Source: Pseudomonadota bacterium (GTDB lineage: Bacteria > Pseudomonadota > Alphaproteobacteria > Rhodobacterales > Rhodobacteraceae). Taken from it: 64,000 nt of DNA. The notes under the pieces are model-generated. The model worked only from the letters and a program-made list of their open reading frames with translations, did no database searches and was not told the origin of the DNA. Position 1 is the first letter of the stretch; each line of letters opens with the position of its first letter. Location of the stretch: the NCBI GenBank assembly GCA_039184865.1, contig JBCDAV010000014.1, positions 21,549 through 85,548 of the forward strand, written 5' to 3'. This document shows positions 28,356 to 43,162 of this stretch, piece after piece. The position numbers and the translations under genes were made by a program.

Positions 28356-30212
28356 GTGGCACAGGCGCTCGACATCGACCGAAACGACGGCACGCTCGCC
28401 GGGCGCGTGCGTACGCTGTTCTCGATCGACGTGAGATCGCTCGCCGCGATGCGCGTGCTGCTCGGCATCACCGTCGTCTACTGCCTGTTGATGATCTTCC
28501 CGGATCTGCGCTGGTTCTACACCGACCAGGGATTTCTCACGCGGGCCGAGGCGCTGTCCGACACGCCATACGCCAAGGCGTCGCTCCTGTTCTTCAACGG
28601 CAGCTACACCTTTGCGGTCGTGCTCTGGGTCCTCGCGCTGCTGGCGGCGGCGTCCTTCATGGTCGGGTTTCGAGCGCGGCTTTCCGCGCTGCTCTGCTGG
28701 ATCCTCTACATGTCGTTCGTCGGCCGCAATCCGCTGGTCGGACAGGGCGGCGATGCGCTGATCCTGCTGTTGCTGTTCTGGTCGATGTTCCTTCCGGTCG
28801 GCCGCGCATTCTCGATCGATGCGGCCTTGTCGGACAATCCGCGCCCGAGCGGAAAGGACAGAGAGGTCTGCTCGGTCGCGACCGTCGGCCTGCTCCTCCA
28901 GGTTCTCTACGTCTACGTCTTCGGCGCCCTCCTGAAGACCGGCCCGCAATGGATGCCGGACGGCAGCGCGGTCTACTTCGCGCTGCATCTCGACACCTTC
29001 GCGACCGAACTTTCGATGTGGTTCCGCCAGTTCTTCGCGCCGACCCAGATCCTGACCTACTTCGTCTTCTGGCTGGAACTGCTCGCCCCCGTCCTGCTGT
29101 TCTTCCCGGACAAGCGGATGCTGGTCCGCACGGCCACACTGGCCCTGCTGATTGCCATGCACCTGGGCTTCCGCGTCTTCATCCGCATCGGGCATTTCTG
29201 GATGGCGAGCCTGTCGTCGCTGTGCACATACATCCCGGGCTGGGTCTGGGACTGGATCGAGGCGCGGTACTGGACCGACGGTCAGCGCTCGATCGAGATC
29301 TACTACGACCGCGATTGCGGCTTCTGCCGGAAGGTCGCCCTGATCCTGCGGGAGTTCTTCCTGCCCATCAGCGTCCCGATCCGCCCGGCGCAGGATTTCG
29401 GCCCCATCGGTGAGGTGTTGGAGCGCGAGGTGAGCTGGGTCGTCATTGATCACACGGGCAAACAAAGGCTGCACTGGGATGCGGTCGCTTATGTGATGTG
29501 TCAGTCTTGGTGCCTGTTGCCGCTCGGCTGGATCGCCGTCGCGGTCGGCAAGATCGGCGTCGGGAAGTTCCTCTACGACAGGATCGGCGCGAACCGGAGA
29601 CCGCTTGGCAGGCTGACCGCGTGGCTGACCCCCGAGACGGGAATCGATGCCCGGCTGGGCGGCGTGACGCGGGCGGGCCTATGCGCCGTGATCGCGGTCT
29701 GCTTCATCTGGAACTTCGACATGATGTCGGGCCAGACCCGCGTCGAGGTTTTGAAGGGAAGCCCGCTCGAACGTCCGATGGCCTTTCTTGGTCTGACCCA
29801 GCGCTGGGGCATGTTCGCCCCGTTTCCTGCGACGGATGAGGGATACATCATCGCCGAAACGATGACCGAGAACGGCGATCATCTGGACGTCGCGCATCGT
29901 CAGCCGGTGCCTTATGTCGACGGTGCGCCGGAAAACCTTTTCTCGCACTTCTCGAATTATCGCTGGCGGCGCTACCAGAACCGCGTGATCCTTTTCGAGA
30001 ACAAGGAGCGGTTCAAGCAGCTATCGCGATTTGCCCGGGCCGCGTGCGCGCTCCACAACCGTGGGCGCGGCGAGGGCGAACGGATCGTGCAGATGTCGAT
30101 CCGCGCCCCGATGAAGCGCCAGTACCTCGACTTTCAGCAGGAGCACATCGTCGCCGACTTCGGCGCATGGAACTGCGTCTTCCCGAACACGGAAGCCCCG
30201 AGCACCGGATAA
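28356..30212 (+). CDS. HTTM-domain membrane protein with inserted DCC1-like thiol-disulfide domain
   Basis: FSIDVRSLAAMR, LFWSMFLP, LLKTGPQW and LGLTQRWGMFAP HTTM-family motifs; internal YYDRDCGFC (DxxCxxC) with SWVVID...HWDAV of the DCC/DUF393 type. Confidence 0.85.
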   Translation: MAQALDIDRNDGTLAGRVRTLFSIDVRSLAAMRVLLGITVVYCLLMIFPDLRWFYTDQGFLTRAEALSDTPYAKASLLFFNGSYTFAVVLWVLALLAAASFMVGFRARLSALLCWILYMSFVGRNPLVGQGGDALILLLLFWSMFLPVGRAFSIDAALSDNPRPSGKDREVCSVATVGLLLQVLYVYVFGALLKTGPQWMPDGSAVYFALHLDTFATELSMWFRQFFAPTQILTYFVFWLELLAPVLLFFPDKRMLVRTATLALLIAMHLGFRVFIRIGHFWMASLSSLCTYIPGWVWDWIEARYWTDGQRSIEIYYDRDCGFCRKVALILREFFLPISVPIRPAQDFGPIGEVLEREVSWVVIDHTGKQRLHWDAVAYVMCQSWCLLPLGWIAVAVGKIGVGKFLYDRIGANRRPLGRLTAWLTPETGIDARLGGVTRAGLCAVIAVCFIWNFDMMSGQTRVEVLKGSPLERPMAFLGLTQRWGMFAPFPATDEGYIIAETMTENGDHLDVAHRQPVPYVDGAPENLFSHFSNYRWRRYQNRVILFENKERFKQLSRFARAACALHNRGRGEGERIVQMSIRAPMKRQYLDFQQEHIVADFGAWNCVFPNTEAPSTG

Positions 30213-32130: not shown

Positions 32131-34008
32131 TCAGCGTAACACGAAATATGCCAGTGACACCCTGAGGTCACTTCCACTCAACGTCTTTGCCGCGCCCAGG
32201 TTGGCGAGAACCGACGCGGCGGGGCCGTCGAGCGCGAGCGTCCCCAGCGACGCAATGCTGTCCAGTGCCATCAGGATATGCGGCCCCGGCACGGTCGGGC
32301 GCAGAGCGGCCCGGACCTGCCCGTCCTGACGCGCCAGAGCCCTGGTGATATCGATAACATAGCCATTGGGATCGACCACCAGCAGCCAGGTTTGACGGTC
32401 GGGCCGGTCCGACATCACGATCCGCGCTGTCTCACCCGCGGACAGTGTCCTGTCGGGATCGTCGACACCGATTTCCCGCGCGCCGCGTCCCGGAAACAGC
32501 CGCGCGAACGACAGTGCCGCACATTGCGGCGGCGTGATCATCCGGCCGCCGACATTCGCCTCGATGCCGACCGATGCCTTGAACGCGCCATCGAAATCGT
32601 AGAACGGCGCGGTATCGTCCGAGAAAGCCTCGATATCTATGCGCTCGGCCGACACCTGCGACGGCTGCGCGAGAAAGCACTCCTCACCGACGAAATCCGT
32701 GAGAAAGTCGCGGACCTGATGATCGAGGGATCGCTCGGCCGAGGCCGCTGTCCCTGCCCCGCCTTGCGCGTTGAGCGCGACAACCGGCAGAAACACGCGT
32801 TGCCGTTCGCGCTCGGAACCGCGCCGCTCCGCCACGATATCGAATTCGAAGTCGCCCTGTTCGGTCGGCGTTCCGGACAGAAGACCGTTGCCGTTTCCCC
32901 GATCGACAAAGCGCAGCCCGGCTGGCAGCAGTCCGGCGATCTTGAGACCTACGGCCTGTTTCTGCGCTGCATTCAGATCGACCGTCGGTCGCCAGAAATA
33001 CGCGGTGCCGACGAACCCGTCATGGGCGCGCTGTATCCCGCCCGGAAAGATCGGCAGCCGCGCCTCTGGCTCCGGCTCGACCCCAGCGACGTCGAAGGTT
33101 TCGGCACCCTCGTCTGAAAGCACCGCGCCGCAGACCTTCGGCAGATCGTCCATCGTGAGCACACGCTTAGCAGATCGGGCCTGCTGGTTGCCCGTGGGTT
33201 GCTGAGCTTCCTCCCAGCGGCGCGTCAGACCGATCGACCGCGATTTCTGTCCGCGCGGAAACCACTTCGACAATTCGGCACCGCACCCCGTGCCGGAGGG
33301 GGGCGGTGCCTGATCGCGGCATCCGGGAGAACCCGCTGGACACGCGAGACGGACATGAAAGTGAGCATTGTGCCCATGCCAAGGGCGCACCTTGCGCAAC
33401 CACGGCGCCTCTATGCGCCCGTTGCGAGCTTTCTCCTCCCGACACATCGCCCGTTTGATCGCGGCGTTGACGAAGATCCGTGCGACGGCAGAGTCCTCGG
33501 CGGCGGCACGGATGACCTCGTGATGCGACTGGGTCCAGTACCGGTTCATCGATATGCCGTCCTTGGCGACAACGACGTGACTGCCGATGCGCTCGCGATC
33601 CTTGCGGCTCAGCTTTTCGATGCTTGGCTGTCGCAACCAGATATCGACGTCCAGACCGATCTGATGCGAGCGGTGACCGGATTTCATCGGCCCGCCGCGC
33701 GGTTGCCCGATATCGCCCACATAAAGGCGCGGCCAGCCGATCTGTTGCGCCTTCACCGAAAGCCGCTCGATGAAGGCAATCATCTCCGGATGGCCCCAGT
33801 TGCGGTTGCGGCTGAGCCGCATCGCCTGCCATCCGCTGGCTGTCTCGCGCAGTTGCATCCCGCCGGACAGGCAGCCCCGCGCATAGCTGCCGAAGGCCGC
33901 CGGTGCCGCTGCGCTGGGTGCCTTGTGCCGGCCAAACAGCGTGTGCGCGGGTTCGGCGAAGGCAGATGTCGCGATCAATGCGGCAATTGCGGCGGTGGTC
34001 CAATTCAT
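32131..34008 (-). CDS. mepA: Penicillin-insensitive murein endopeptidase MepA fused to an Ig-like domain and an uncharacterised C-terminal domain
   Basis: Signal peptide; GSYARGCLSGG, RNRNWGHP, GHRSHQIGLDVDIW and HNAHFHVRLAC give intact LAS Zn ligands; then LPAGLRF...LLSGTPTEQGDFEFDI (Ig) and about 200 further residues. Confidence 0.88.
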   Translation of the reverse strand: MNWTTAAIAALIATSAFAEPAHTLFGRHKAPSAAAPAAFGSYARGCLSGGMQLRETASGWQAMRLSRNRNWGHPEMIAFIERLSVKAQQIGWPRLYVGDIGQPRGGPMKSGHRSHQIGLDVDIWLRQPSIEKLSRKDRERIGSHVVVAKDGISMNRYWTQSHHEVIRAAAEDSAVARIFVNAAIKRAMCREEKARNGRIEAPWLRKVRPWHGHNAHFHVRLACPAGSPGCRDQAPPPSGTGCGAELSKWFPRGQKSRSIGLTRRWEEAQQPTGNQQARSAKRVLTMDDLPKVCGAVLSDEGAETFDVAGVEPEPEARLPIFPGGIQRAHDGFVGTAYFWRPTVDLNAAQKQAVGLKIAGLLPAGLRFVDRGNGNGLLSGTPTEQGDFEFDIVAERRGSERERQRVFLPVVALNAQGGAGTAASAERSLDHQVRDFLTDFVGEECFLAQPSQVSAERIDIEAFSDDTAPFYDFDGAFKASVGIEANVGGRMITPPQCAALSFARLFPGRGAREIGVDDPDRTLSAGETARIVMSDRPDRQTWLLVVDPNGYVIDITRALARQDGQVRAALRPTVPGPHILMALDSIASLGTLALDGPAASVLANLGAAKTLSGSDLRVSLAYFVLR

Positions 34009-34126
34009 CCGTGAATTCGTGCTGCTCTATCTGTGGGCGAATCTTACCCGAGCACCGGATGGCGTGCTAGTATCTGGGCGATCGTACCGCGTCGGGCGAG
34101 CGTGAACCCCGATTGGAGCCTGCACC

Positions 34127-34687
34127 ATGCCAAGAGCAATCATCGCCGGTCTGTTCGTCATGCTCGCGACCGCCTCAACCGACGCGCAGCAATCGAACTA
34201 TTCGGCGGAGGACATTGTCGAACACTTCCGGAACCAGGCGGGTTCCTCCGGCACCGCCCAGCAGACCCGAGGCGTCGTTATCGGTGCTGCGGGTTTCGGG
34301 AACAGCACGCAGTCCTCGGCGGGGACTGCTGCGACCGAGGCGCCGCCCGACCCCGGCGCCTACAACCTGATGGTCACGTTCGAGCTCAATTCGGACCGCC
34401 TGACACCGATTGCGCGCAGCAATCTCGACGAGTTTGCCAAGGCGCTGAGGGCTCCGGACCTCGCCTCGCTGCGTTTCGCGGTGGACGGGCACACGGACTC
34501 GAGCGGGTCGGACACCTACAATTTCGGTCTCAGCGCCCGCAGAGCAGATGCGGTCGTGCGGTATCTGACGCGCAACGGGATCGACGGCAGCCGGCTCGAG
34601 GCACGCGGGTTTGGCGAAACGCGGCCGGTCAATGCAGACCCCCGCCATCCGAGCAACAGACGGGTCGAGACGCGGCTGATCAGATAG
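34127..34687 (+). CDS. Secreted OmpA-like peptidoglycan-binding domain protein
   Basis: Signal peptide; VTFELNSDRLT, DGHTDSSGSDTYNFGLSARRA, NRRVE. Confidence 0.92.
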   Translation: MPRAIIAGLFVMLATASTDAQQSNYSAEDIVEHFRNQAGSSGTAQQTRGVVIGAAGFGNSTQSSAGTAATEAPPDPGAYNLMVTFELNSDRLTPIARSNLDEFAKALRAPDLASLRFAVDGHTDSSGSDTYNFGLSARRADAVVRYLTRNGIDGSRLEARGFGETRPVNADPRHPSNRRVETRLIR

Positions 34688-34888
34688 ACGTTTCCGCGCC
34701 GGTTCGCCAAGGTCGGGGCAATCGAGGCAACGGGGGCAGGTGTCGATGCCGCAGTGCGAAGAAATTTGTGCACTGCATTGACGCGGCGGGGAATCGCTGC
34801 GTAGGGTTTTTACCAACAAGACAAAAAATCGAGCAGGCGACGAGACCGCAGTGTCTGAATGGCACCGCGTTGCGGGGGAGAATGACCG

Positions 34889-36508
34889 TTGACCTGGTTC
34901 GTCACACTCGTTGTGATCCTGATCGCAGCGATCCTGCTCATCCTGTTTCTGAACCGATACTATCGCAAGGCCACGCGCGAGGTCGCGCTGGTCCGGACGG
35001 GCTCCGGCGGGCAACTCGTGGTGCTCGATGGCGGCTGCATCGCGGTGCCGTTCCTCCACAAGGTCTCCGAGATCAACATGCGCACGACCAAGCTCGAGAT
35101 CGAGCGCGTCGGGCCGAAATCGGTGATCACGAAGGACCGCTTGCGGGTCGATGTCGGCGCAGAGTTCTATGTCCGCGTCGAGGCCACGGATGACGGTGTC
35201 GCAACTGCGGCGCAGGCGCTGGCCGGCAAGACGTTTCGGGCATCCGAACTCGCCGACACGCTGGAAGGCAAGCTGGTCGATGCGGTGCTCTCGGTTGCCG
35301 CCGGCTACACGATGGACACCCTGCAGGACGAGCGTGGAAAGTACACGGCCGCCGTCGCGAACGAACTGAAAGACGATCTCGCGCAGAACGGTCTCGTCCT
35401 CGAAAGCGTCTCTTTGACCCGCCTCGACCAGACCCCGTTCCAGGCGCTGGATGAGAACAACGCCTTCAACGCGCTTGGTATGCGGCGCCTCGCCGAGATC
35501 ATCGCGACGAACAAGAAGGAACGCGCGGAGATCGAGGCCGACGCCGAGGTTTCCGTGCGCCAATCTGAATTGGACGCGACCAAACGGAAACTGGTGATCA
35601 GCCAGGAGGAGGAGGAAGCGGTCATCGCCCAACAGCGCGAGATCGAAACCTCGCGCGCCAAGAGCCAGGCCGACATCGCCGAGGAACAGGCGACCTCCGA
35701 GAAACGCCGGGAAGCCGCACGCATCGAGCGCGAGCGCGAGACCCGGATGTCCGAGATCGAAAAGGACCGGGCGCTGCGAAAACAGCAGCTTGAGGCCGAA
35801 CTGGCCACGGAAAGCGCAAAGTCAGAGAACGTGGTCAAGCTCGCCGCGAAACGGATCGAGCAGGCCGTCGCCGAAGCCGAGGCGCAGCGCGCGCGAACGC
35901 AGGAGGTCGAGGCGGAAACGCAGGTCGAGACGACCCGTCAGACCGCAGAGGCCGAGCGCGCGAAAGAGATCGCCCTGATCCGCGCGCGCGAACAGGCCGA
36001 GGTCGACGATACCCGCGTGGCATCCGAGGCCGGAACGATCGTCTCGATGGCCGAAGCGCAGGCCAAGGCGACGCTGGAGCAGGCCGAGGCGGCAAAGAAT
36101 GAACTGCTGTCGCGCGCCGAGGGCACCGCCGCGCTGATCGCTGCCGAGAACGCGCAATCGGCCGAGCTGATGAAGCTCAAGCTCGATCAGGATCGCCTGC
36201 GCACCTTGCCGGGCGTCGTCGAACGGCTGATGAAGCCCGCCGAGAAGATCGAGACGATCCGGATCAACCAGATCTCCGGTCTTGGAAATTCCGGTGGCAC
36301 CGCTGGCGAAAGCGGCGACAAATCCGCGATCAATCAGGCGGTCGACGGCGTGCTGAACATGGCGCTGCAGCTTCCGGCCGTGAAGAAGCTCGGCGAGGAG
36401 GTCGGCCTGAATGTCGGCGGCGGCCTCGACGGCATCACGAAATCGCTGACGGACGCCCCGGAGACGGGCGACGGCGCACCGAACAAGGACACGTCGCAGG
36501 ATACGTGA
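34889..36508 (+). CDS. Flotillin family (SPFH/band 7) protein
   Basis: N-terminal TM, SPFH domain (ITKDRLRVDVGAEFYVRV; LESVSLTRLDQT), FNALGMRRL, long AEA-rich coiled coil, EKIETIRI tail; TTG start 8 nt after GGGGAG. Confidence 0.93.
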   Translation: MTWFVTLVVILIAAILLILFLNRYYRKATREVALVRTGSGGQLVVLDGGCIAVPFLHKVSEINMRTTKLEIERVGPKSVITKDRLRVDVGAEFYVRVEATDDGVATAAQALAGKTFRASELADTLEGKLVDAVLSVAAGYTMDTLQDERGKYTAAVANELKDDLAQNGLVLESVSLTRLDQTPFQALDENNAFNALGMRRLAEIIATNKKERAEIEADAEVSVRQSELDATKRKLVISQEEEEAVIAQQREIETSRAKSQADIAEEQATSEKRREAARIERERETRMSEIEKDRALRKQQLEAELATESAKSENVVKLAAKRIEQAVAEAEAQRARTQEVEAETQVETTRQTAEAERAKEIALIRAREQAEVDDTRVASEAGTIVSMAEAQAKATLEQAEAAKNELLSRAEGTAALIAAENAQSAELMKLKLDQDRLRTLPGVVERLMKPAEKIETIRINQISGLGNSGGTAGESGDKSAINQAVDGVLNMALQLPAVKKLGEEVGLNVGGGLDGITKSLTDAPETGDGAPNKDTSQDT

Positions 36509-36539: not shown

Positions 36540-37787
36540 ATGGTGACCACCCGCAGACGCTTCCTTGCCGGATCCTCGGCCCTCGCGCTGGCAGCACCGG
36601 CCCTGACGGGTCGCGCGCTGGCCGATGACATCACCTTCGTCTCGATCCTCGACCAGTCGGGCGGGCTCGACATCTATGGCAAGCCGATGGTCGACGCGAC
36701 GCGCATGGCGATTGACGAGATCAACAAGGCCGGCGGCCTCAACGGCGCCATGGTCGACCTGAAGGTCTACGATCCGCAGTCGACCATCCAGTTCTACACG
36801 CAGTTCGCGACCCAGGCCGCCGCCGGCGACCGCGCAAACGTCGTCCATGCCGGGATCACTTCGGCCTCGCGCGAGGCGATCCGGCCGACCTTCGCGCGCT
36901 TCCAGACGCTCTATTTCTACAACACGCTCTACGAAGGCGGCGTCTGCGACATGAACAATTTCTGCACCGGTTCGACGCCGGCGCAGACCGTCGAGAAGCT
37001 GGTCCCCTACACGATGAACAAGTGGGGCAAGAAGGTCTACATCATCGCGGCCGACTACAATTACGGCCAGATCACCGCGCAGTGGGTCCAGAAATACGTG
37101 CGCGACAATGGCGGCGAGCCGGTGGCGACCGAATTCTTCCCGCTCGACGTCACGAACTTCGGCCCGACGATCAAGAAGATCCAGGCGGCCAAGCCCGACA
37201 TGGTGATGTCGGCACTGGTCGGCGGCGCCCATGTCAGCTTCTACCGCCAGTACGCGGCGGCGGGGATGAACAAGTCGATCCCGATCGCCTCGACGACGTT
37301 CGGCGTCGGCAACGAGCACAAGCTGATCAGCGCCGAGGAAGGCGACGGCATGATCTGCGCCTACTCCTATTTCGAGGAGATCGAGAGCGCGGCCAACGCG
37401 GACTTCGTCGGCCGCTTCAAGGCGTTCGTCGGCGACGGCGCGCCCGCGCTCAACGAGCTTGCGGCACGATCGTACGAAGGCGCGATGCTCTGGGCAGAAG
37501 CCGTGAAGGCGGCCGGGACCGCCGACCGGATGCCGGTGATCGAGGCACTTCGCGGCGGGCTGTCCTATGCCGGACCGTCGGGACCGGTGACGATCGAGCC
37601 CAAGACCAACCACGCGCTGCAGAACGTCTATCTCGCCGAGTTGAAGGACCAGAGCTTCGACATCCTCGAGACCTACGAGTCGCAGCCGCCGACCGACACG
37701 CTGCTGGTGTGCGATCTCGTCGCCGACCCGAGCCAGTCGACCTTCAAGTTCGAGAACGGTCTGGAAGCGGCAGGGATCAAGCTCTGA
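36540..37787 (+). CDS. Urea/short-chain amide ABC transporter substrate-binding protein (UrtA/AmiC-like)
   Basis: Tat signal TRRRFL; SASREAIRP, YFYNTLYEGG, IAADYNYGQ motifs. Confidence 0.9.
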   Translation: MVTTRRRFLAGSSALALAAPALTGRALADDITFVSILDQSGGLDIYGKPMVDATRMAIDEINKAGGLNGAMVDLKVYDPQSTIQFYTQFATQAAAGDRANVVHAGITSASREAIRPTFARFQTLYFYNTLYEGGVCDMNNFCTGSTPAQTVEKLVPYTMNKWGKKVYIIAADYNYGQITAQWVQKYVRDNGGEPVATEFFPLDVTNFGPTIKKIQAAKPDMVMSALVGGAHVSFYRQYAAAGMNKSIPIASTTFGVGNEHKLISAEEGDGMICAYSYFEEIESAANADFVGRFKAFVGDGAPALNELAARSYEGAMLWAEAVKAAGTADRMPVIEALRGGLSYAGPSGPVTIEPKTNHALQNVYLAELKDQSFDILETYESQPPTDTLLVCDLVADPSQSTFKFENGLEAAGIKL

Positions 37788-37834: not shown

Positions 37835-38704
37835 ATGGACCTCGTAATCGCCCTTGGCCTGCAGATCCTCTACGGGATCGCCAACCTCGCGCTGATCAGC
37901 CTGGGGCTGGCGATCATTTTCGGGATGATGCGGGTCATCAACCTCGCCCACGGCGAGTTTCTGATGCTCGGCGGGTATACGGTCGTGGTTGCGACCAACA
38001 ACGGCGTGAACATCTGGATCGCCATGCTGGTGCTCGCCCCGCTGGTCGTCGGCGTGATCGGCGTGATCGTCGAGCGTTTGCTGATCCGATGGCTCTACGG
38101 ACGCATGGTCGACACGTTGCTCGCCACCTGGGGGCTTTCGCTGCTCTTCATCGGGCTGGTGACCACGATCTTCGGGGCATCGACGGCCACGACAATCTCC
38201 CCGCCCCTCGGCGTGATCGAGATCGGTGATTACTCGTCATCGGGCTATGAGCTGTTCCTGATCATCGTGACGGTCGTGCTGCTCCTCGCGGTCTGGGCTA
38301 CTCTGAAGCTGACACGGCTCGGTCTCGTCGCACGCGGCACCATGCAGAACGCCGAAATGGCCTCGGCGCTCGGCGTCTCGACCAACCAGACGTACATGAT
38401 CACGTTCGGCCTCGGCGCGGCGGTCTCCGGGCTTGCGGGCGGGCTGCTGGCACCGATCACCGGCGTTCTGCCGACCATCGGGGCGATCTACATCGCCAAG
38501 GCGTTCATCACCGTCATCTCCGGCGGCATGGCCATCCTCGCCGGGACGACCTCGGCCTCGGTGCTGCTCGGCGGCGTCAACGGCATCACCGCCTTCCTGA
38601 CGGGACCGACCATGGGCGAGGTCGCCCTGCTTCTGGTCGCGATCATCCTGTTGCGCCTGATGCCACGCGGGATCACCGGCACCTGGTTCAGGAAAAGCCT
38701 GTGA
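37835..38704 (+). CDS. Branched-chain/urea ABC transporter permease (UrtB/LivH-like)
   Basis: GLAIIFGMMRVINLAHGEF motif, multi-TM. Confidence 0.93.
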   Translation: MDLVIALGLQILYGIANLALISLGLAIIFGMMRVINLAHGEFLMLGGYTVVVATNNGVNIWIAMLVLAPLVVGVIGVIVERLLIRWLYGRMVDTLLATWGLSLLFIGLVTTIFGASTATTISPPLGVIEIGDYSSSGYELFLIIVTVVLLLAVWATLKLTRLGLVARGTMQNAEMASALGVSTNQTYMITFGLGAAVSGLAGGLLAPITGVLPTIGAIYIAKAFITVISGGMAILAGTTSASVLLGGVNGITAFLTGPTMGEVALLLVAIILLRLMPRGITGTWFRKSL

Positions 38705-39759
38705 GCGTCGACCGGGAGTTTCGTGGAACGCTGATCATCGCGGTCTTGGCCGTGATTTTCACGCTGGCCGCCCCTTCGGTGTTCGAGCTCTTCACGATCA
38801 TCAACCTCACGACGGCGATCGCGCTTGCGATGCTCGCGCTCAGCCTCGCGCTGGTCTGGGGATACGGCGGCATCCTGTGCTTCGGGCAGACCGCGTTTTT
38901 CGGGATCGGCGCCTACGCCTACACGATCGCCGCGATCAATTTCGGAGGATCGACCGGCGCGATCCTCGTGGCGATCCTCGTGGCCGCCGCCGCCGCCGCG
39001 ATCCTCGGCTATGTCGTGTTCTATGGCCGCGTGTCGGATGTCTACCTCGCCGTCATCACGCTCACGGTCGCGCTGATCCTCTACAGCCTGATCCGGCGCA
39101 CCTCGGGTCCCGAATACAAGATCGGCAACGCGCTGCTTGGCGGGTTCAACGGCGTGACCTCGCCACCGATCAACGTGCCCTGGGCGCCCTACTCGATGCT
39201 GTTTCCCGAGCATCTGTTCTACGTCGCCATGGTCGCCCTGATCCTGGCGTACATCTTTTGCGGCTGGCTGGTTCGGACCCATTTCGGCCGGGTCTGCATC
39301 TCGATCCGCGAGAACGAACTGCGCGCCGAGCTGATCGGTTACGACACGCGCCTCTACAAGCTCGGCATCTTCACCATCGGTGCCGCGATCGCGGGACTGG
39401 CCGGGGTGCTGTTCTCCAATGGGATCGGCCGGGTCACGCCGGATGTCTTCAACCTCTACAACTCCGCGCTCACGATCATCTGGGTCATCGTCGGGGGGCG
39501 GGGCACCTTGATCGGACCGATCCTCGGCGCCTTCGGGCTGTTTTATCTGACAGCGTCGCTCGGCTCGCAGTCGGTCCTGAACAACAACCTGGTGCTGGGC
39601 GTCATCCTGATCGTCTTCGTCCTCGGGGTCCCGAAGGGCGTCGTGCCGACCGTCACCGACTGGCTCTCGTCGCGGCGCAGGCTCAAGGCATCGCGCGCAC
39701 GCGAGCGGCGGATGCGCCTGCGCAGGTCGCGCGCCGGAACCGTGGAGCCGGCCGAATGA
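38701..39759 (+). CDS. Branched-chain/urea ABC transporter permease (UrtC/LivM-like)
   Basis: WGYGGILCFGQTAFFGIGAY, IRENELRAELIGY, GGRGTLIGP; GTGA overlap with the upstream stop. Confidence 0.93.
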   Translation: MSVDREFRGTLIIAVLAVIFTLAAPSVFELFTIINLTTAIALAMLALSLALVWGYGGILCFGQTAFFGIGAYAYTIAAINFGGSTGAILVAILVAAAAAAILGYVVFYGRVSDVYLAVITLTVALILYSLIRRTSGPEYKIGNALLGGFNGVTSPPINVPWAPYSMLFPEHLFYVAMVALILAYIFCGWLVRTHFGRVCISIRENELRAELIGYDTRLYKLGIFTIGAAIAGLAGVLFSNGIGRVTPDVFNLYNSALTIIWVIVGGRGTLIGPILGAFGLFYLTASLGSQSVLNNNLVLGVILIVFVLGVPKGVVPTVTDWLSSRRRLKASRARERRMRLRRSRAGTVEPAE

Positions 39760-40478
39760 AGCGGGGCGAGGTGGTGCTCGAGACACGCGGACTGTCGATG
39801 TATTTCGGCGGCGTGAAGGCCGTCGACCGCGTCGACTTCTCGCTCTGGGCCAACGAGTTGCGCTGCCTGATCGGGCCGAACGGGGCCGGAAAATCGACCT
39901 TCTTCAAGTGCCTGACGGGGCAGCTTTTGCCGACGGCGGGCGACGTGGTCATCCGGGATGTGCACGTCGCGGGACGCGAGCCGCACGAAATCTCGGCCCT
40001 CGGCGTCGGCATCAAGACCCAGGTTCCGAATGTCTTCAACGGCCTCAGCGTCGAGGAGAACGTCTGGCTCTCGGCCCGGCGCTGGCACGGCAACGCGCGG
40101 GCGCGCGCTCTGACCGGCGAAACCCTCGAACGCCTGCAACTGACCGAGATCCGCAGCAACTCCGTCGATGCGCTGTCGCATGGCCAGCGCCAGTGGGTCG
40201 AACTCGGCATGGTCGTCGCCGCGGAACCGTGGCTGGTTCTGCTCGACGAGCCGGCTGCCGGAATGACCCATGAGGAGACCCAGCGCACGGCGGATCTGAT
40301 CCGCGAAATCAACAAGACAGCGACCCTGATCGTCGTCGAGCACGACATGCAGTTCATCCGGATGATCTCGAAGACCGTGACCCTGTTCCATGAAGGCCGC
40401 ATCCTGATGGAAGACACGATGGAGGCGATCTCAGCCGATCCGAAGGCGCGGGAAGTCTACCTGGGAACGCGGGCATGA
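39756..40478 (+). CDS. ABC transporter ATP-binding protein (UrtD/LivG-like)
   Basis: [32 protein letters not shown] 39756 overlaps the upstream stop; the track ORF from 38877 is an over-extension. Confidence 0.93.
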
Positions 40479-42829
40479 GCGCACTGCTGGAAGTTCGCGG
40501 GCTGACCTCCGGCTACGGCCGCGTCCCGGTGCTGCACGGGATCGACTTCTCGGTGCAGGACGGCGAGATCATCGGCATTCTCGGCCACAACGGCATGGGC
40601 AAGACGACGCTCCTGAAGACGGTCATGGGCCTCGTTCCGGCAACCGGCGGCGTGATGACCTTTGCCGGGCTCGACCTCGCGGGCGAACGGACCTCCGAGC
40701 GCGCCAAGCTCGGCATCGGCTATGTCCCGCAGGGCCGCGGCATTTTTCCGAACCTCAGTGTTTTCGATAACATCCGCATGGGGATCGCGGCCCACGAGGC
40801 CGACGAAGAGGACGCCGTCCGCCGCATTCTGCAGGAGTTTCCACGGCTTGAGCGCCTGCTCGAGCGCGAGGGCGGGGCGCTCTCGGGCGGCGAGCAGCAG
40901 CTTCTGGCGATTGCCCGCGCGCTGATCTCGGAACCGGAACTGATCCTGCTCGACGAGCCGACGGAAGGCATTCAGCCGAGCATCATCGACGAGATCATCG
41001 ACCTGCTGAAAGACCTCAATCGCAAACGCGGTCTGACCATCGTTCTGGTGGAGCAGAACCTCGACTTCATCCACGAGCTTTCGGACCGCGTGCTCCTGCT
41101 GCAGAAGGGCGTGATCGAGGGCGAGATGTCCGGCTCGGATGCAGCCGACCCCGCCCTGATCGACGAATTCACCGGCTTCGGCGGCGGCAATGGCGCGCGT
41201 CCCGCGCAGATCTCGAAACCCAAACCGAAAGACGAGCCACGGCCCGACCCGGTCACCAGACCGGCCCCGGACCGCGCTCCGCCCGACACTTCGCTCAATG
41301 GAAGGATCAGCTACATGACGGCACAGCGACCGACCCTTGCGCAACTGAAGGACATCACGCTCGAACTGGGCATGAGCCTGTCCGAGACCCGTATCCGCGA
41401 GTTCCACGAGGTCATGCAGGGCACGCTCGACGCCTACGACATCGTCGACGCCCTGCCCGACTACCTGCCGCCCGTCCTCTATCCCAGAACCGCCGGCCAT
41501 CGCCCGTCCGAGGAGGAAAACCCGCTCAACGCCTGGTACGTGAAGACCGAGATCAGGGGCGCACCGCGCGGCAAACTGCACGGCAAGACCGTCGCCCTGA
41601 AAGACAATGTCTGCCTCGCGGGCGTGCCGATGATGAACGGCGCCTCGACGCTCAAGGGCTATACGCCGGACGTCGATGCAACAATCGTGACCCGGCTTCT
41701 GGATGCCGGCGCGACGATCACCGGCAAGGCCCATTGCGAGTATTTCTGCCTCTCCGGCGGCTCTCATACCAATGCGACCGGCCCGGTCCACAACCCGCAC
41801 AAGCACGGCTTTGCGGCGGGCGGGTCGTCCTCCGGTTCCGGCGCGCTGGTCGGCGGCGGCGTCGTCGACATGGCGATTGGTGGCGACCAGGGCGGGTCGA
41901 TCCGCATGCCCGCCTCGTTCTGCGGCTGCTACGGTATGAAACCGACGCACGGGCTGGTGCCTTATACCGGCGTCATGCCGATCGAGGCGACCATCGATCA
42001 CACCGGGCCGATGACCCAGACGGTCATGGACAACGCGCTGATGCTCGAGGTCCTTGCCGGACCGGACGGCCTGGACCCCCGCCAATACGACGTTGTTACC
42101 GATAACTATTCGGCTGCCGTGACCCGCGGTGTCTCCGGGTTGCGGATCGGCGTGGTCAAGGAGGGCTTCGACCGCGCGGAGTCCGAGTCCGATGTCGATG
42201 CCAAGAACCGTGCCGCAGCCGAGATGTTCCGCCAGATGGGGGCGACCGTCGACGAGATCTCGATCCCGTGGCACCTGAAAGGCCCCGCGATCTGGACGCC
42301 GATTGCAGTCGAAGGCCTGACCAACCAGATGATGCACGGCAACGGCATGGGCACCGGCTGGGGGGGCATGTACACGACCTCGCTGCTCGATTTCCACGCG
42401 AACTGGCGTCAGCGCGCAGACGAACTCAGCGACACGCTCAAGATCTGCATGTTCATCGGCCAGTACTATCTTAAGCACCACCGCGGCCACTACTATTCGA
42501 AGTCGCAGAACCTCGCCCGGCAGCTTCGCGAGGAATACAACAAGGTGCTGGCGTCATACGACCTGCTGCTGATGCCGACGACGCCGATGAAAGCCCAGCC
42601 GATCCCGCCCGCGGACGCGCCGCTCGAGCTCTGGTGCCAGCGCGCCTTCGAGATGCTGAACAACACCGCGCCCTTCGACGTGACCGGGCATCCTGCCATG
42701 GCGCTTCCCTGCGGAATGTCGGACGGGCTGCCGGTCAGCGTGATGCTGGTGGGACGGCGCTACGAGGAGAGCACGATCTACCGCGCTGCCGGGGCGTTCG
42801 AGGCCGCAGGCGACTGGCGTAAGATGTGA
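40475..42829 (+). CDS. Fusion: ABC ATP-binding domain (UrtE/LivF-like) plus amidase-signature family amidase
   Basis: Residues 1-~235: [24 protein letters not shown]. Pro-rich linker. From Met281 (nt 41315): [25 protein letters not shown] (Ser-cisSer-Lys triad) and CEYFC (CX3C). No stop in between. Confidence 0.9.
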
Positions 42830-42844
42830 GACCGGGGCAACCCA

Positions 42845-42872
42845 ACCGGGCGCGCACTCGGACGCGCCCGGT
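42845..42872. terminator. GC-rich hairpin between convergent genes
   Basis: ACCGGGCGCG-(8 nt)-CGCGCCCGGT perfect 10-bp stem, 15 nt after the amidase stop; no U-tract. Confidence 0.55.
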
Positions 42873-42880
42873 GCGCCCCC

Positions 42881-43162
42881 TCAGGCGACCTCTTTGCCTC
42901 TGACAGATGCAGAGGTATCTGCTTGCTCGAGATAACGCAGAGCCTGCGCCACTGCGGCTTTCGGGTTGAAGACAGCCGTCACCACGTTCTGGACGACGCA
43001 TATCCACGGCAATCCGTTGCGCCGTGCGACGGCGCGCGCCTCGCCCAGCGCTTCGTGGATCTCCGCTGCGTGCCGACGGGCATATGTCTCGATGGTGTCA
43101 ATCCGGACCAGAAGAACCTTCAGGCTCTGGCGAATGGTCTCGGCGTAGTTTGCATCCGGCAT
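42881..43162 (-). CDS. Small hypothetical helical protein (93 aa)
   Basis: AGGGGA RBS 6-7 nt upstream; amphipathic helical composition; fills an otherwise empty gap. Confidence 0.5.
   Translation of the reverse strand: MPDANYAETIRQSLKVLLVRIDTIETYARRHAAEIHEALGEARAVARRNGLPWICVVQNVVTAVFNPKAAVAQALRYLEQADTSASVRGKEVA

Follow-up and report, generated by a model that had tools for sequence, protein, structure and literature searches.

A stretch of DNA of 64,000 nucleotides (nt), referred to below as the window, from a bacterium of the family Rhodobacteraceae (Pseudomonadota; assembly GCA_039184865.1, contig JBCDAV010000014.1, positions 21,549–85,548 of the forward strand) harbors on its plus strand a gene (40475–42829; one open frame of 784 amino acids (aa)) encoding the second ATPase of an ABC-type importer fused via a linker to a complete amidase. 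The fusion is genuine, and its arrangement lies far beyond chance. Judging by sequence comparisons, this single gene probably, albeit with considerable room for doubt, supplies both a transporter-tethered amidase and a free amidase subunit within a six-gene operon for the uptake and hydrolysis of carboxamides; the two products, the pairing of the subunits into a dimer, the channeling of the substrate, and the substrate class are what we infer. Two samples of relatives were compared: the 120 best protein clusters (74–91% identity, mostly 777–838 aa) and a genomic scan with one genome per species, where the best 80 of 503 relatives were fetched (about 62–91% identity). Counts out of 78 given below refer to the full-length fused genes among these 80 loci.

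In the open reading frame (ORF) of 784 aa, Pfam recognizes ABC_tran at residues 20–163 (E 3.5e-32) and Amidase at residues 357–768 (E 2.9e-92). By its motifs, the ATPase domain (residues 1–235; 40475–41179) is a nucleotide-binding subunit (PF00005) of the LivF/UrtE type: it features Walker A (G37–T45), the Q-loop, LSGGEQQ (136–142), Walker B with the catalytic Glu (LLDE, 158–161), and a VEQN switch, which we take to be typical of LivF, with the core residues invariant in 78 of 78 homologs. Since the NCBIfam UrtE model TIGR03410 matches residues 5–222 with 264.1 bits, slightly under its equivalog cut-off of 285.8, this half is designated here as UrtE-like and is not filed as UrtE. The ATG of the fusion gene shares bases with the TGA that ends the UrtD-like ATPase gene before it (ATGA, 40475–40478). 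Downstream of the ATPase domain lies a low-complexity linker (residues 236–272; 41180–41290), followed by an internal Shine–Dalgarno (SD)-like motif, GGAAGGA (41300–41306), located 8 nt upstream of an in-frame ATG (Met281; 41315–41317), which aligns with the start of free-standing amidases.

The rest of the gene (41315–42829; 504 aa) encodes an amidase-signature enzyme of the RhAmidase/PRK07235 type. The model NF005565 (PRK07235) covers residues 281–783 with its positions 1–505 of 506 (802.9 bits, cut-off 545); the match from model position 1 at residue 281 makes Met281 the exact start point of the free-standing amidases. The similarity to the amidase of Rhodococcus sp. N-771 (3A1K; E 6e-144, aligned 15–497) includes the Ser-cisSer-Lys triad and the signature GGSS(S/G)GS: K376, S451, and S475, invariant in 78/78 homologs, align with K96, S171, and S195 of 3A1K (residue numbers according to PMC11732141). 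Upstream of the signature lies the CX3C motif CEYFC (C421–C425; 41735–41749), aligned with CEDLC of 3A1K; C421 is kept in 76 and C425 in all 78 fused homologs. The CX3C subgroup of signature amidases, cleaving amides and nitriles, is defined in PMC8393822, which cites Cilia et al. (2005). By these sequence features, the amidase half is a member of the CX3C, nitrile-hydratase-associated RhAmidase group, with nitriles as possible further substrates. An earlier note on this DNA, made from the letters alone, had located the ORF, its domains, the linker, the Met281 start, GGAAGGA, and CEYFC, and all of them were recovered at the same positions. Its description of a complete UrtE/LivF-type ATPase joined in one frame to a full amidase holds as well, both halves being intact by Pfam and NCBIfam, while its assignment to the CX3C group is backed by the alignment with CEDLC and by a split Agrobacterium locus that adjoins nitrile hydratase genes (see below).

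The same note had named the recent loss of a stop codon as the alternative to a genuine fusion and had suggested searching for the ABC_tran–Amidase architecture and rechecking the junction at the level of reads. Both domains were found in 120 of 120 best protein clusters, and both halves occupied one uninterrupted frame in 80 of 80 best genomic loci, down to ~62% identity. The carriers belong to Rhodobacterales/Paracoccaceae, Rhizobiaceae, Aquibium, Thalassobaculaceae, Geminicoccaceae, Minwuia, Kiloniellaceae, and Ferrovibrio; several are metagenome-assembled genomes labelled Gammaproteobacteria, and the fused architecture is seen in complete genomes and isolates too. At the junction, a Logan contig from a marine-metagenome run (word depth about 20) displayed zero differences over 40900–41427, a segment spanning the linker and the internal start. 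Given this independent identical contig and the recurrence of the architecture in more than 120 protein clusters and 80 genomes, there is next to no chance that a sequencing or assembly error erased a stop or shifted the frame between two genes; nothing in favor of such an error turned up. A recent stop-codon loss is likewise dismissed by the persistence of the fusion across several alphaproteobacterial orders with its frame held through a hypervariable linker. Source records that give the fused proteins a name label them “amidase” only; such an annotation hides the ATPase, so that the transporter seems to be one subunit short.

The fusion is, by its distribution, a trait of one sub-clade of the RhAmidase family. 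When the amidase half was compared with 1.84 billion representatives, the more distant relatives were nearly all free proteins of about 500 aa, and at 50% identity clustering ABC_tran plus Amidase recurred in a single other representative (P0122); this pattern is the ground for regarding the fusion as the property of a sub-clade. The main fused clade is monophyletic in the neighbor-joining tree of the amidases, and mean identity among the 78 fused genes amounts to 69% for the ATPase halves and 79% for the amidase halves. Two further candidates for ABC fusions were rejected: P0126 (705 aa) combines the HsdM N-terminal and N6_Mtase domains with a partial amidase (64% identity) and is probably a chimeric metagenomic contig and not a true architecture, and P0150 (Myb plus amidase) is unrelated or chimeric.

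The linker, whose conservation the earlier note had proposed to check, turned out to be hypervariable in sequence and always open in frame. Its length ranges from 23 to 96 aa across the family (32 distinct lengths), pairwise identity is about 20% in alignable columns, and Ala (24%), Pro (18%), and Ser (11%) are prominent in its composition. Frame 0 is free of stops in 78/78 genes vs. 50/78 and 49/78 for the other two frames. Because the linker stays open despite its 32 lengths and the catalytic motifs of both halves are conserved, read-through across the linker is, on sequence grounds, under selection, with both activities and their covalent connection maintained. A long, disordered, and fast-evolving linker would fit a tether better than an allosteric connector.

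These figures bear on the suggestion that the fusion is incidental, i.e., that the free amidase is the functional product and that read-through is merely tolerated after an old stop-codon loss, tethering having no role. Such a suggestion draws on the internal SD being stronger than the fusion’s own start (see below) and on the split relatives, which clearly work with separate proteins. Still, stops and frameshifts would gather in so variable a linker under neutral read-through, and yet frame 0 is open in 78/78 genes, each of the other two frames in only some 64%. Down to 62% identity, every one of the 80 loci is fused, and the fusion strictly co-occurs with the gene of a membrane scaffold, flotillin. 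An incidental fusion is accordingly rated as very unlikely.

A retained internal ribosome-binding site, claimed by the earlier note, is strongly backed by the nucleotide-level evidence. The codon in the Met281 column is ATG in 78/78 fused loci, and an SD core is present at −16 to −5 of this ATG in 77 of the 78, vs. 7.4% of 2,445 other in-frame ATGs. The distance from the end of AGG to the ATG equals 9 nt in 64 of the 77 SD-bearing loci. The residues encoded at the SD vary (ERM, QEA, PKEY, PREA, MEA) and the SD is kept, being re-encoded across residues and registers, e.g., as GAA-AGG-ATG (ERM), CAG-GAG-GCG (QEA), AAG-GAG (KE), or AGG-GAG-GCT (REA). Where the SD encodes Arg, AGG is used in 65 of 69 genes (94%); at 20 other conserved Arg columns, each of which uses 5–6 codons, AGG makes up 3% in the median and at most 12%. 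Hence, synonymous sites have turned over freely except at the SD. Predicted folding of the 60 nt surrounding the internal ATG is weak, with a mean of −9.4 kcal/mol compared with −17.7 for segments taken at random from the same genes, and near this ATG the GC content falls from 0.70 to 0.44. What the fused genes share is an in-frame start with an SD at a working distance, both conserved beyond the needs of the protein sequence; the split relatives possess the same SD (see below).

The pairing of the SD was computed with a 16S rRNA tail ending in CCUCCUUUCU, which is assumed, as the window has no rRNA gene. With this tail, the SD of Met281 is the strongest among 18 conserved Met columns. In the window, the internal start scores −8.9, the gene of the substrate-binding protein (SBP) of the same operon −9.7, and the start of the fusion −4.2, so by this calculation the internal SD is as strong as that of the SBP gene and far above the coupled 5′ start of the fusion. 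Taken at the level of sequence, the internal SD and ATG are under nucleotide-level selection, and the internal start looks functional.

The same evidence bears on the notion of a single product, according to which only the 84-kDa fusion matters, and the SD and ATG are either a relic of the ancestral intergenic ribosome-binding site or a pausing site helping the ATPase domain to fold before the amidase emerges. It is in line with the fusions on Sulfitobacter plasmids, retaining the fusion and the Met without an SD, and with the origin of some internal SD-like strings of the same gene from Gly-rich motifs. On the other hand, a relic should decay: synonymous sites elsewhere have turned over, and the Arg at the SD is still encoded by AGG in nearly all cases. 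Moreover, the SD has been re-encoded in other registers and residues with its distance to the ATG held, and low mRNA structure centered on the ATG marks sites of initiation, not of pausing. Overall, a single product appears distinctly unlikely, though less so than an incidental fusion.

Several observations speak against two products from one gene or narrow the basis for them. The 78 fused sequences share kinship, so the counts do not represent independent events. The top rank of Met281 depends on the assumed 16S 3′ tail: the duplex energy computed with the E. coli tail failed to separate Met281 from Met466, Met478, and Met619, which lie downstream of Gly-rich motifs, although it did separate Met281 from the average in-frame ATG. 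Two fusions residing on Sulfitobacter plasmids keep a Met aligned with Met281 (SMTIRRPT) without a recognizable SD. Hence, a fusion can work without a free isoform, and a conserved Met by itself is no proof of initiation; at the same time, a Met kept without an SD shows that the protein sequence does not of itself give rise to the SD seen in the main clade. A search for RNA sequencing runs holding the fusion gene found none. The AlphaFold2 model of the whole fusion, built with 45 homologs, reached a mean predicted local distance difference test score (pLDDT) of 55 with the amidase half unfolded, so contacts between the domains were unreadable. Finally, the acyl-CoA ligase and any linked regulator are missing from the window: searching its 64 kb for MarR, ANTAR, another AmiC-like protein, and a ligase of the AMP-binding type, all of which accompany related loci, found none.

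The Sulfitobacter fusions (L082, 6980–9361; L086, 5983–8364) are divergent, with about 57% identity. The neighbor-joining tree is compatible with one or two fusion events, its internal branches being 0.008–0.018 long. The Sulfitobacter clade may thus represent a second, independent fusion or a secondary loss of the SD.

The split state was found on annotated plasmids of Aureimonas, Tistrella, Pleomorphomonas, and Agrobacterium, where the amidase gene begins 83–181 nt after the UrtE-like gene, as well as in Paracoccus methylovorus and Thioclava, where the spacing is 3–4 nt; in Caballeronia and Bradyrhizobium, the amidase gene is placed before the transporter genes. The spacers of 83–85 nt in three split orthologs (L081, 7703–7785; L085, 6703–6787; L087, 6697–6779) are C-rich and contain GAAGGAGG, GAAAGGAAG, or GGAAAGGATG 4–6 nt before the amidase ATG (reduced to the core, GAAGGAGG or GAAAGGA). 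Fused genes show the same SD motif where their linker ends. These three spacers would translate as Pro/Ala-rich peptides, and by their sequence look like the raw material, or a remnant, of the linker. The simplest history suggested by these sequences is that the stop codon was lost and the frame adjusted, so that the spacer would have become the linker with its ribosome-binding site still in use.

The split operons (Aureimonas pAU20a, Tistrella pTM2, Pleomorphomonas, Agrobacterium pAt, Paracoccus methylovorus, and Thioclava) share with the window the gene order, with the amidase directly after the UrtE-like gene, and the SD before the amidase ATG. They differ in the stop codon and the 3–181-nt spacer, in the frame of the amidase (another one in 5 of 6), and in the absence of flotillin. 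The regulators differ, too: some split operons feature MarR and a paralog with a substrate-binding domain (AmiC-like), and others a substrate-binding-domain protein together with ANTAR. In Agrobacterium tumefaciens pAtAF1_95 (L087, 750–12188), the split operon is located within an aldoxime–nitrile–amide cluster comprising phenylacetaldoxime dehydratase, the transporter, the amidase, nitrile hydratase with its accessory protein, and CbtA/CbtB cobalt transport.

In the window, the fusion gene is preceded on the plus strand by five genes. A flotillin (34889–36508) with an N-terminal transmembrane helix, an SPFH/Band_7 domain (residues 30–217 in Pfam), and a C-terminal Flot domain (388–507) is probably encoded by the first gene of the operon. 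It ends 31 nt before the gene of the periplasmic SBP (36540–37787; Peripla_BP_5, Peripla_BP_6), which is of the type that binds urea and amides and resembles UrtA, AmiC, and FmdD. Next come two permeases, UrtB/LivH-like (37835–38704; BPD_transp_2, with TIGR03622 and TIGR03409 under cut-off) and UrtC/LivM-like (38701–39759; BPD_transp_2, with TIGR03727 and TIGR03408 under cut-off), and ATPase 1, UrtD/LivG-like (39756–40478; ABC_tran, BCA_ABC_TP_C, with TIGR03411 at 245 bits, under cut-off).

On the plus strand at 34781–34802, following an OmpA-family ORF, the terminator scan reported a hairpin of terminator type with a T-run, which is a probable upstream boundary of the operon. At the other end, a perfect GC-rich 9-bp hairpin without a T-run (CCGGGCGCG...CGCGCCCGG; 42846–42871), read from the sequence 17 nt after the stop of the fusion, may mark the end of the transcript; the terminator scan did not pick it up. 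It sits between the fusion gene and a convergent minus-strand ORF of 93 aa (42881–43162) with no function assigned. The sigma-70 promoter scan found nothing, and Rfam reported no family in the 64 kb, so that riboswitches and other known RNA families are absent. An ORF of 386 aa (34033–35193) that runs across the beginning of the flotillin gene and lacks any Pfam domain was judged to be probably spurious. An antisense ORF of 677 aa (40457–42490, minus strand) extends across most of the fusion gene and is most likely a non-coding shadow ORF of GC-rich sequence.

The linkage to flotillin, which the earlier note had missed along with the usual downstream acyl-CoA ligase and the Sulfitobacter clade without the SD, is tight. 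In 70 of 70 fused loci with upstream DNA (among L003–L080, L082, and L086), the gene immediately before the SBP gene, in the same orientation, encodes a flotillin homolog; this holds for 0 of 8 split or free loci. The identity of these flotillins to the window copy tracks that of the amidases (r = 0.91). The nearest flotillins outside the system are 44–46% identical and occur in YqiJ–flotillin pairs. A YqiJ/NfeD partner sought upstream of the window flotillin was absent; that position is taken by the OmpA-family ORF (34127–34687, 186 aa) and the terminator-like site. In the Sulfitobacter loci, it is a substrate-binding-domain paralog that lies there, upstream of the flotillin.

Under the preferred reading, i.e., one gene with two products, the operon would deal with exogenous carboxamide in the order flotillin, SBP, two permeases, UrtD-like ATPase, and UrtE-like ATPase–amidase fusion. 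Ribosomes that begin at 40475, by coupling to translation of the ATPase gene before it, would read through the linker to give the ~84-kDa ATPase–amidase, and each importer would thereby carry a single tethered amidase domain on its cytoplasmic side. Ribosomes engaging the internal SD (41300–41306) would start at ATG 41315 and give the ~54-kDa amidase alone, probably in excess, since the internal SD is as strong as that of the SBP gene and much stronger than the fusion’s own start. An importer of the Urt/Liv type contains one UrtD-type and one UrtE-type ATPase. The native RhAmidase forms a ~107-kDa homodimer and possesses an N-terminal helical domain that is specific to its family (PMC11732141). 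With one UrtE-type subunit per importer and a dimeric nearest relative, the free subunit would complete a dimer with the tethered one. Alternatively, importers clustered by flotillin may pair their tethered amidase domains with each other, which may be what the Sulfitobacter clade lacking the SD relies on. The imported amide would be hydrolyzed at the exit of the transporter, and in most relatives the acid would then be activated by the adjacent acyl-coenzyme A (CoA) ligase.

A bolder version, which we hold to be possible but rather unlikely, is a flotillin-organized transport metabolon, with the importer clustered in a membrane microdomain and the dimeric amidase assembled at its cytoplasmic face from anchored and free subunits, both supplied by one gene via the retained ancestral ribosome-binding site, so that the amide would be split while leaving the transporter. 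If true, it would provide a defined client of a bacterial flotillin and a problem of stoichiometry solved by internal initiation after gene fusion.

It has also been considered that the amidase domain is a regulatory appendage coupling the transport rate to the cytoplasmic occupancy of substrate or product, without channeling. A C-terminal accessory domain on one ATPase of a heterodimeric pair is indeed known, e.g., in NrtC and CmpC (PMC10945777, PMC13287603). Nevertheless, all catalytic residues of the amidase are invariant, which argues for an enzyme and not a degenerate sensor, and a hypervariable Ala/Pro/Ser linker of 23–96 residues is ill suited to allosteric signaling. A regulatory appendage has only a slim probability; it is compatible with tethering and does not exclude it.

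Concerning the substrate, the models of UrtA, UrtB, UrtC, UrtD, and UrtE all score below the urea-equivalog cut-offs for the five importer components. The SBP is matched by urea SBP models only under cut-off, and its nearest relatives in PDB are 8TG1, UrtA (7S6E), and AmiC (1PEA); no paper was found for 8TG1. Of the 76 fused loci with enough downstream DNA, 68 have a gene of acyl-CoA ligase (AMP-binding) immediately after the fusion (in the Sulfitobacter loci, L082 9373–11136 and L086 8376–10139). This ligase is PRK12583-like and scores 802 bits with NF009233 (cut-off 832); it is missing after the fusion in the window and in L001, L009, L015, L051, L068, and L074. Some split loci include a substrate-binding-domain protein and ANTAR, and others the genes of aldoxime dehydratase, nitrile hydratase, and cobalt transport. 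Taken together, the type of SBP, the neighboring acyl-CoA ligase, and the amide and nitrile genes of the split loci point to import and hydrolysis of a carboxamide, usually with CoA activation of the acid.

Elsewhere in the window, a Peptidase_M74 (MepA-like) protein of 625 aa (32131–34008, minus strand) has its domain at residues 39–297 only, leaving ~330 C-terminal residues outside. A 618-aa protein (28356–30212), whose gene is flanked by metG and by that of a Na+/H+ exchanger containing TrkA-N, shows a weak match to HTTM (vitamin-K-dependent carboxylase-like; E 2.4e-9).

Coupling of transport and metabolism at bacterial importers has often been proposed, but a clean genetic handle on it is rare; here, a catabolic enzyme is covalently bound to the importer ATPase. 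Natural controls are at hand in the form of the split orthologs and the fused clade without the internal SD (Sulfitobacter sp. THAF37 among its carriers), and synonymous mutation would suffice to abolish the internal start. Cultured carriers of the main clade include Lutimaribacter saemankumensis DSM 28010, Seohaeicola saemankumensis, Sulfitobacter sediminilitoris, and Lacimonas salitolerans. What bacterial flotillins do, and which proteins are their clients, is still debated. A flotillin subfamily that has swapped the YqiJ/NfeD partner for one specific transporter makes this transporter a candidate flotillin client. Systems of this kind in marine alphaproteobacteria may bear on the turnover of dissolved organic amides and nitriles.

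The full-text literature searches for the fusion or the flotillin link returned nothing relevant, and the combination appears to be undescribed; its parts, i.e., the CX3C amidase of the RhAmidase type, the HAAT importer, fusion by stop loss, internal initiation, and flotillin, are known. The window enzyme shares with RhAmidase (3A1K/3A1I) and the PRK07235/NF005565 amidases end-to-end homology, the N-terminal helical domain, the triad, and CX3C, and some relatives of RhAmidase are genetically linked to nitrile hydratase. Unlike RhAmidase, a free cytosolic homodimer made from its own gene, the window enzyme is also the C-terminal part of a transporter ATPase. The importers of the HAAT family (UrtABCDE) have the same five components, i.e., an SBP, two permeases, and two different ATPases, and the window SBP is related to UrtA and to the amide sensor AmiC. 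FmdDEF of Methylophilus is presumably an importer of short-chain amides from the same family. In the window system, the partner enzyme is of the amidase-signature family, not a urease, formamidase, or AmiE, and it is carried by the second ATPase. The flotillin shares the SPFH and Flot domains and the N-terminal membrane anchor with the flotillins of bacterial operons composed of YqiJ/NfeD-like and YqiK/FloT-type proteins; the canonical operon includes the YqiJ/NfeD partner, whereas the window flotillin lacks it and heads a transporter operon instead.

C-terminal regulatory domains are carried by the importer ATPases MetN, ModC, and MalK. In NrtC and CmpC, as in the window fusion, the extra C-terminal domain resides on only one of two distinct ATPases (PMC10945777, PMC13287603). 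However, the domains of NrtC/CmpC, MetN, ModC, and MalK bind ligands or regulators, while the domain in the window is a complete enzyme on a long, predicted disordered tether. Internal in-frame initiation yielding co-assembling long and short forms is known for ClpB, CheA (L/S), IF2, and the cyanobacterial CcmM (M58/M35). Like such genes, the window gene features an SD and ATG inside the ORF at a domain boundary, conserved among orthologs. A genome-wide mapping of internal initiation is available (bioRxiv 10.1101/520783). It is unlike ClpB, CheA, IF2, and CcmM in that the predicted short form would be the whole product of the ancestral gene, made from the ancestral ribosome-binding site kept after the fusion.

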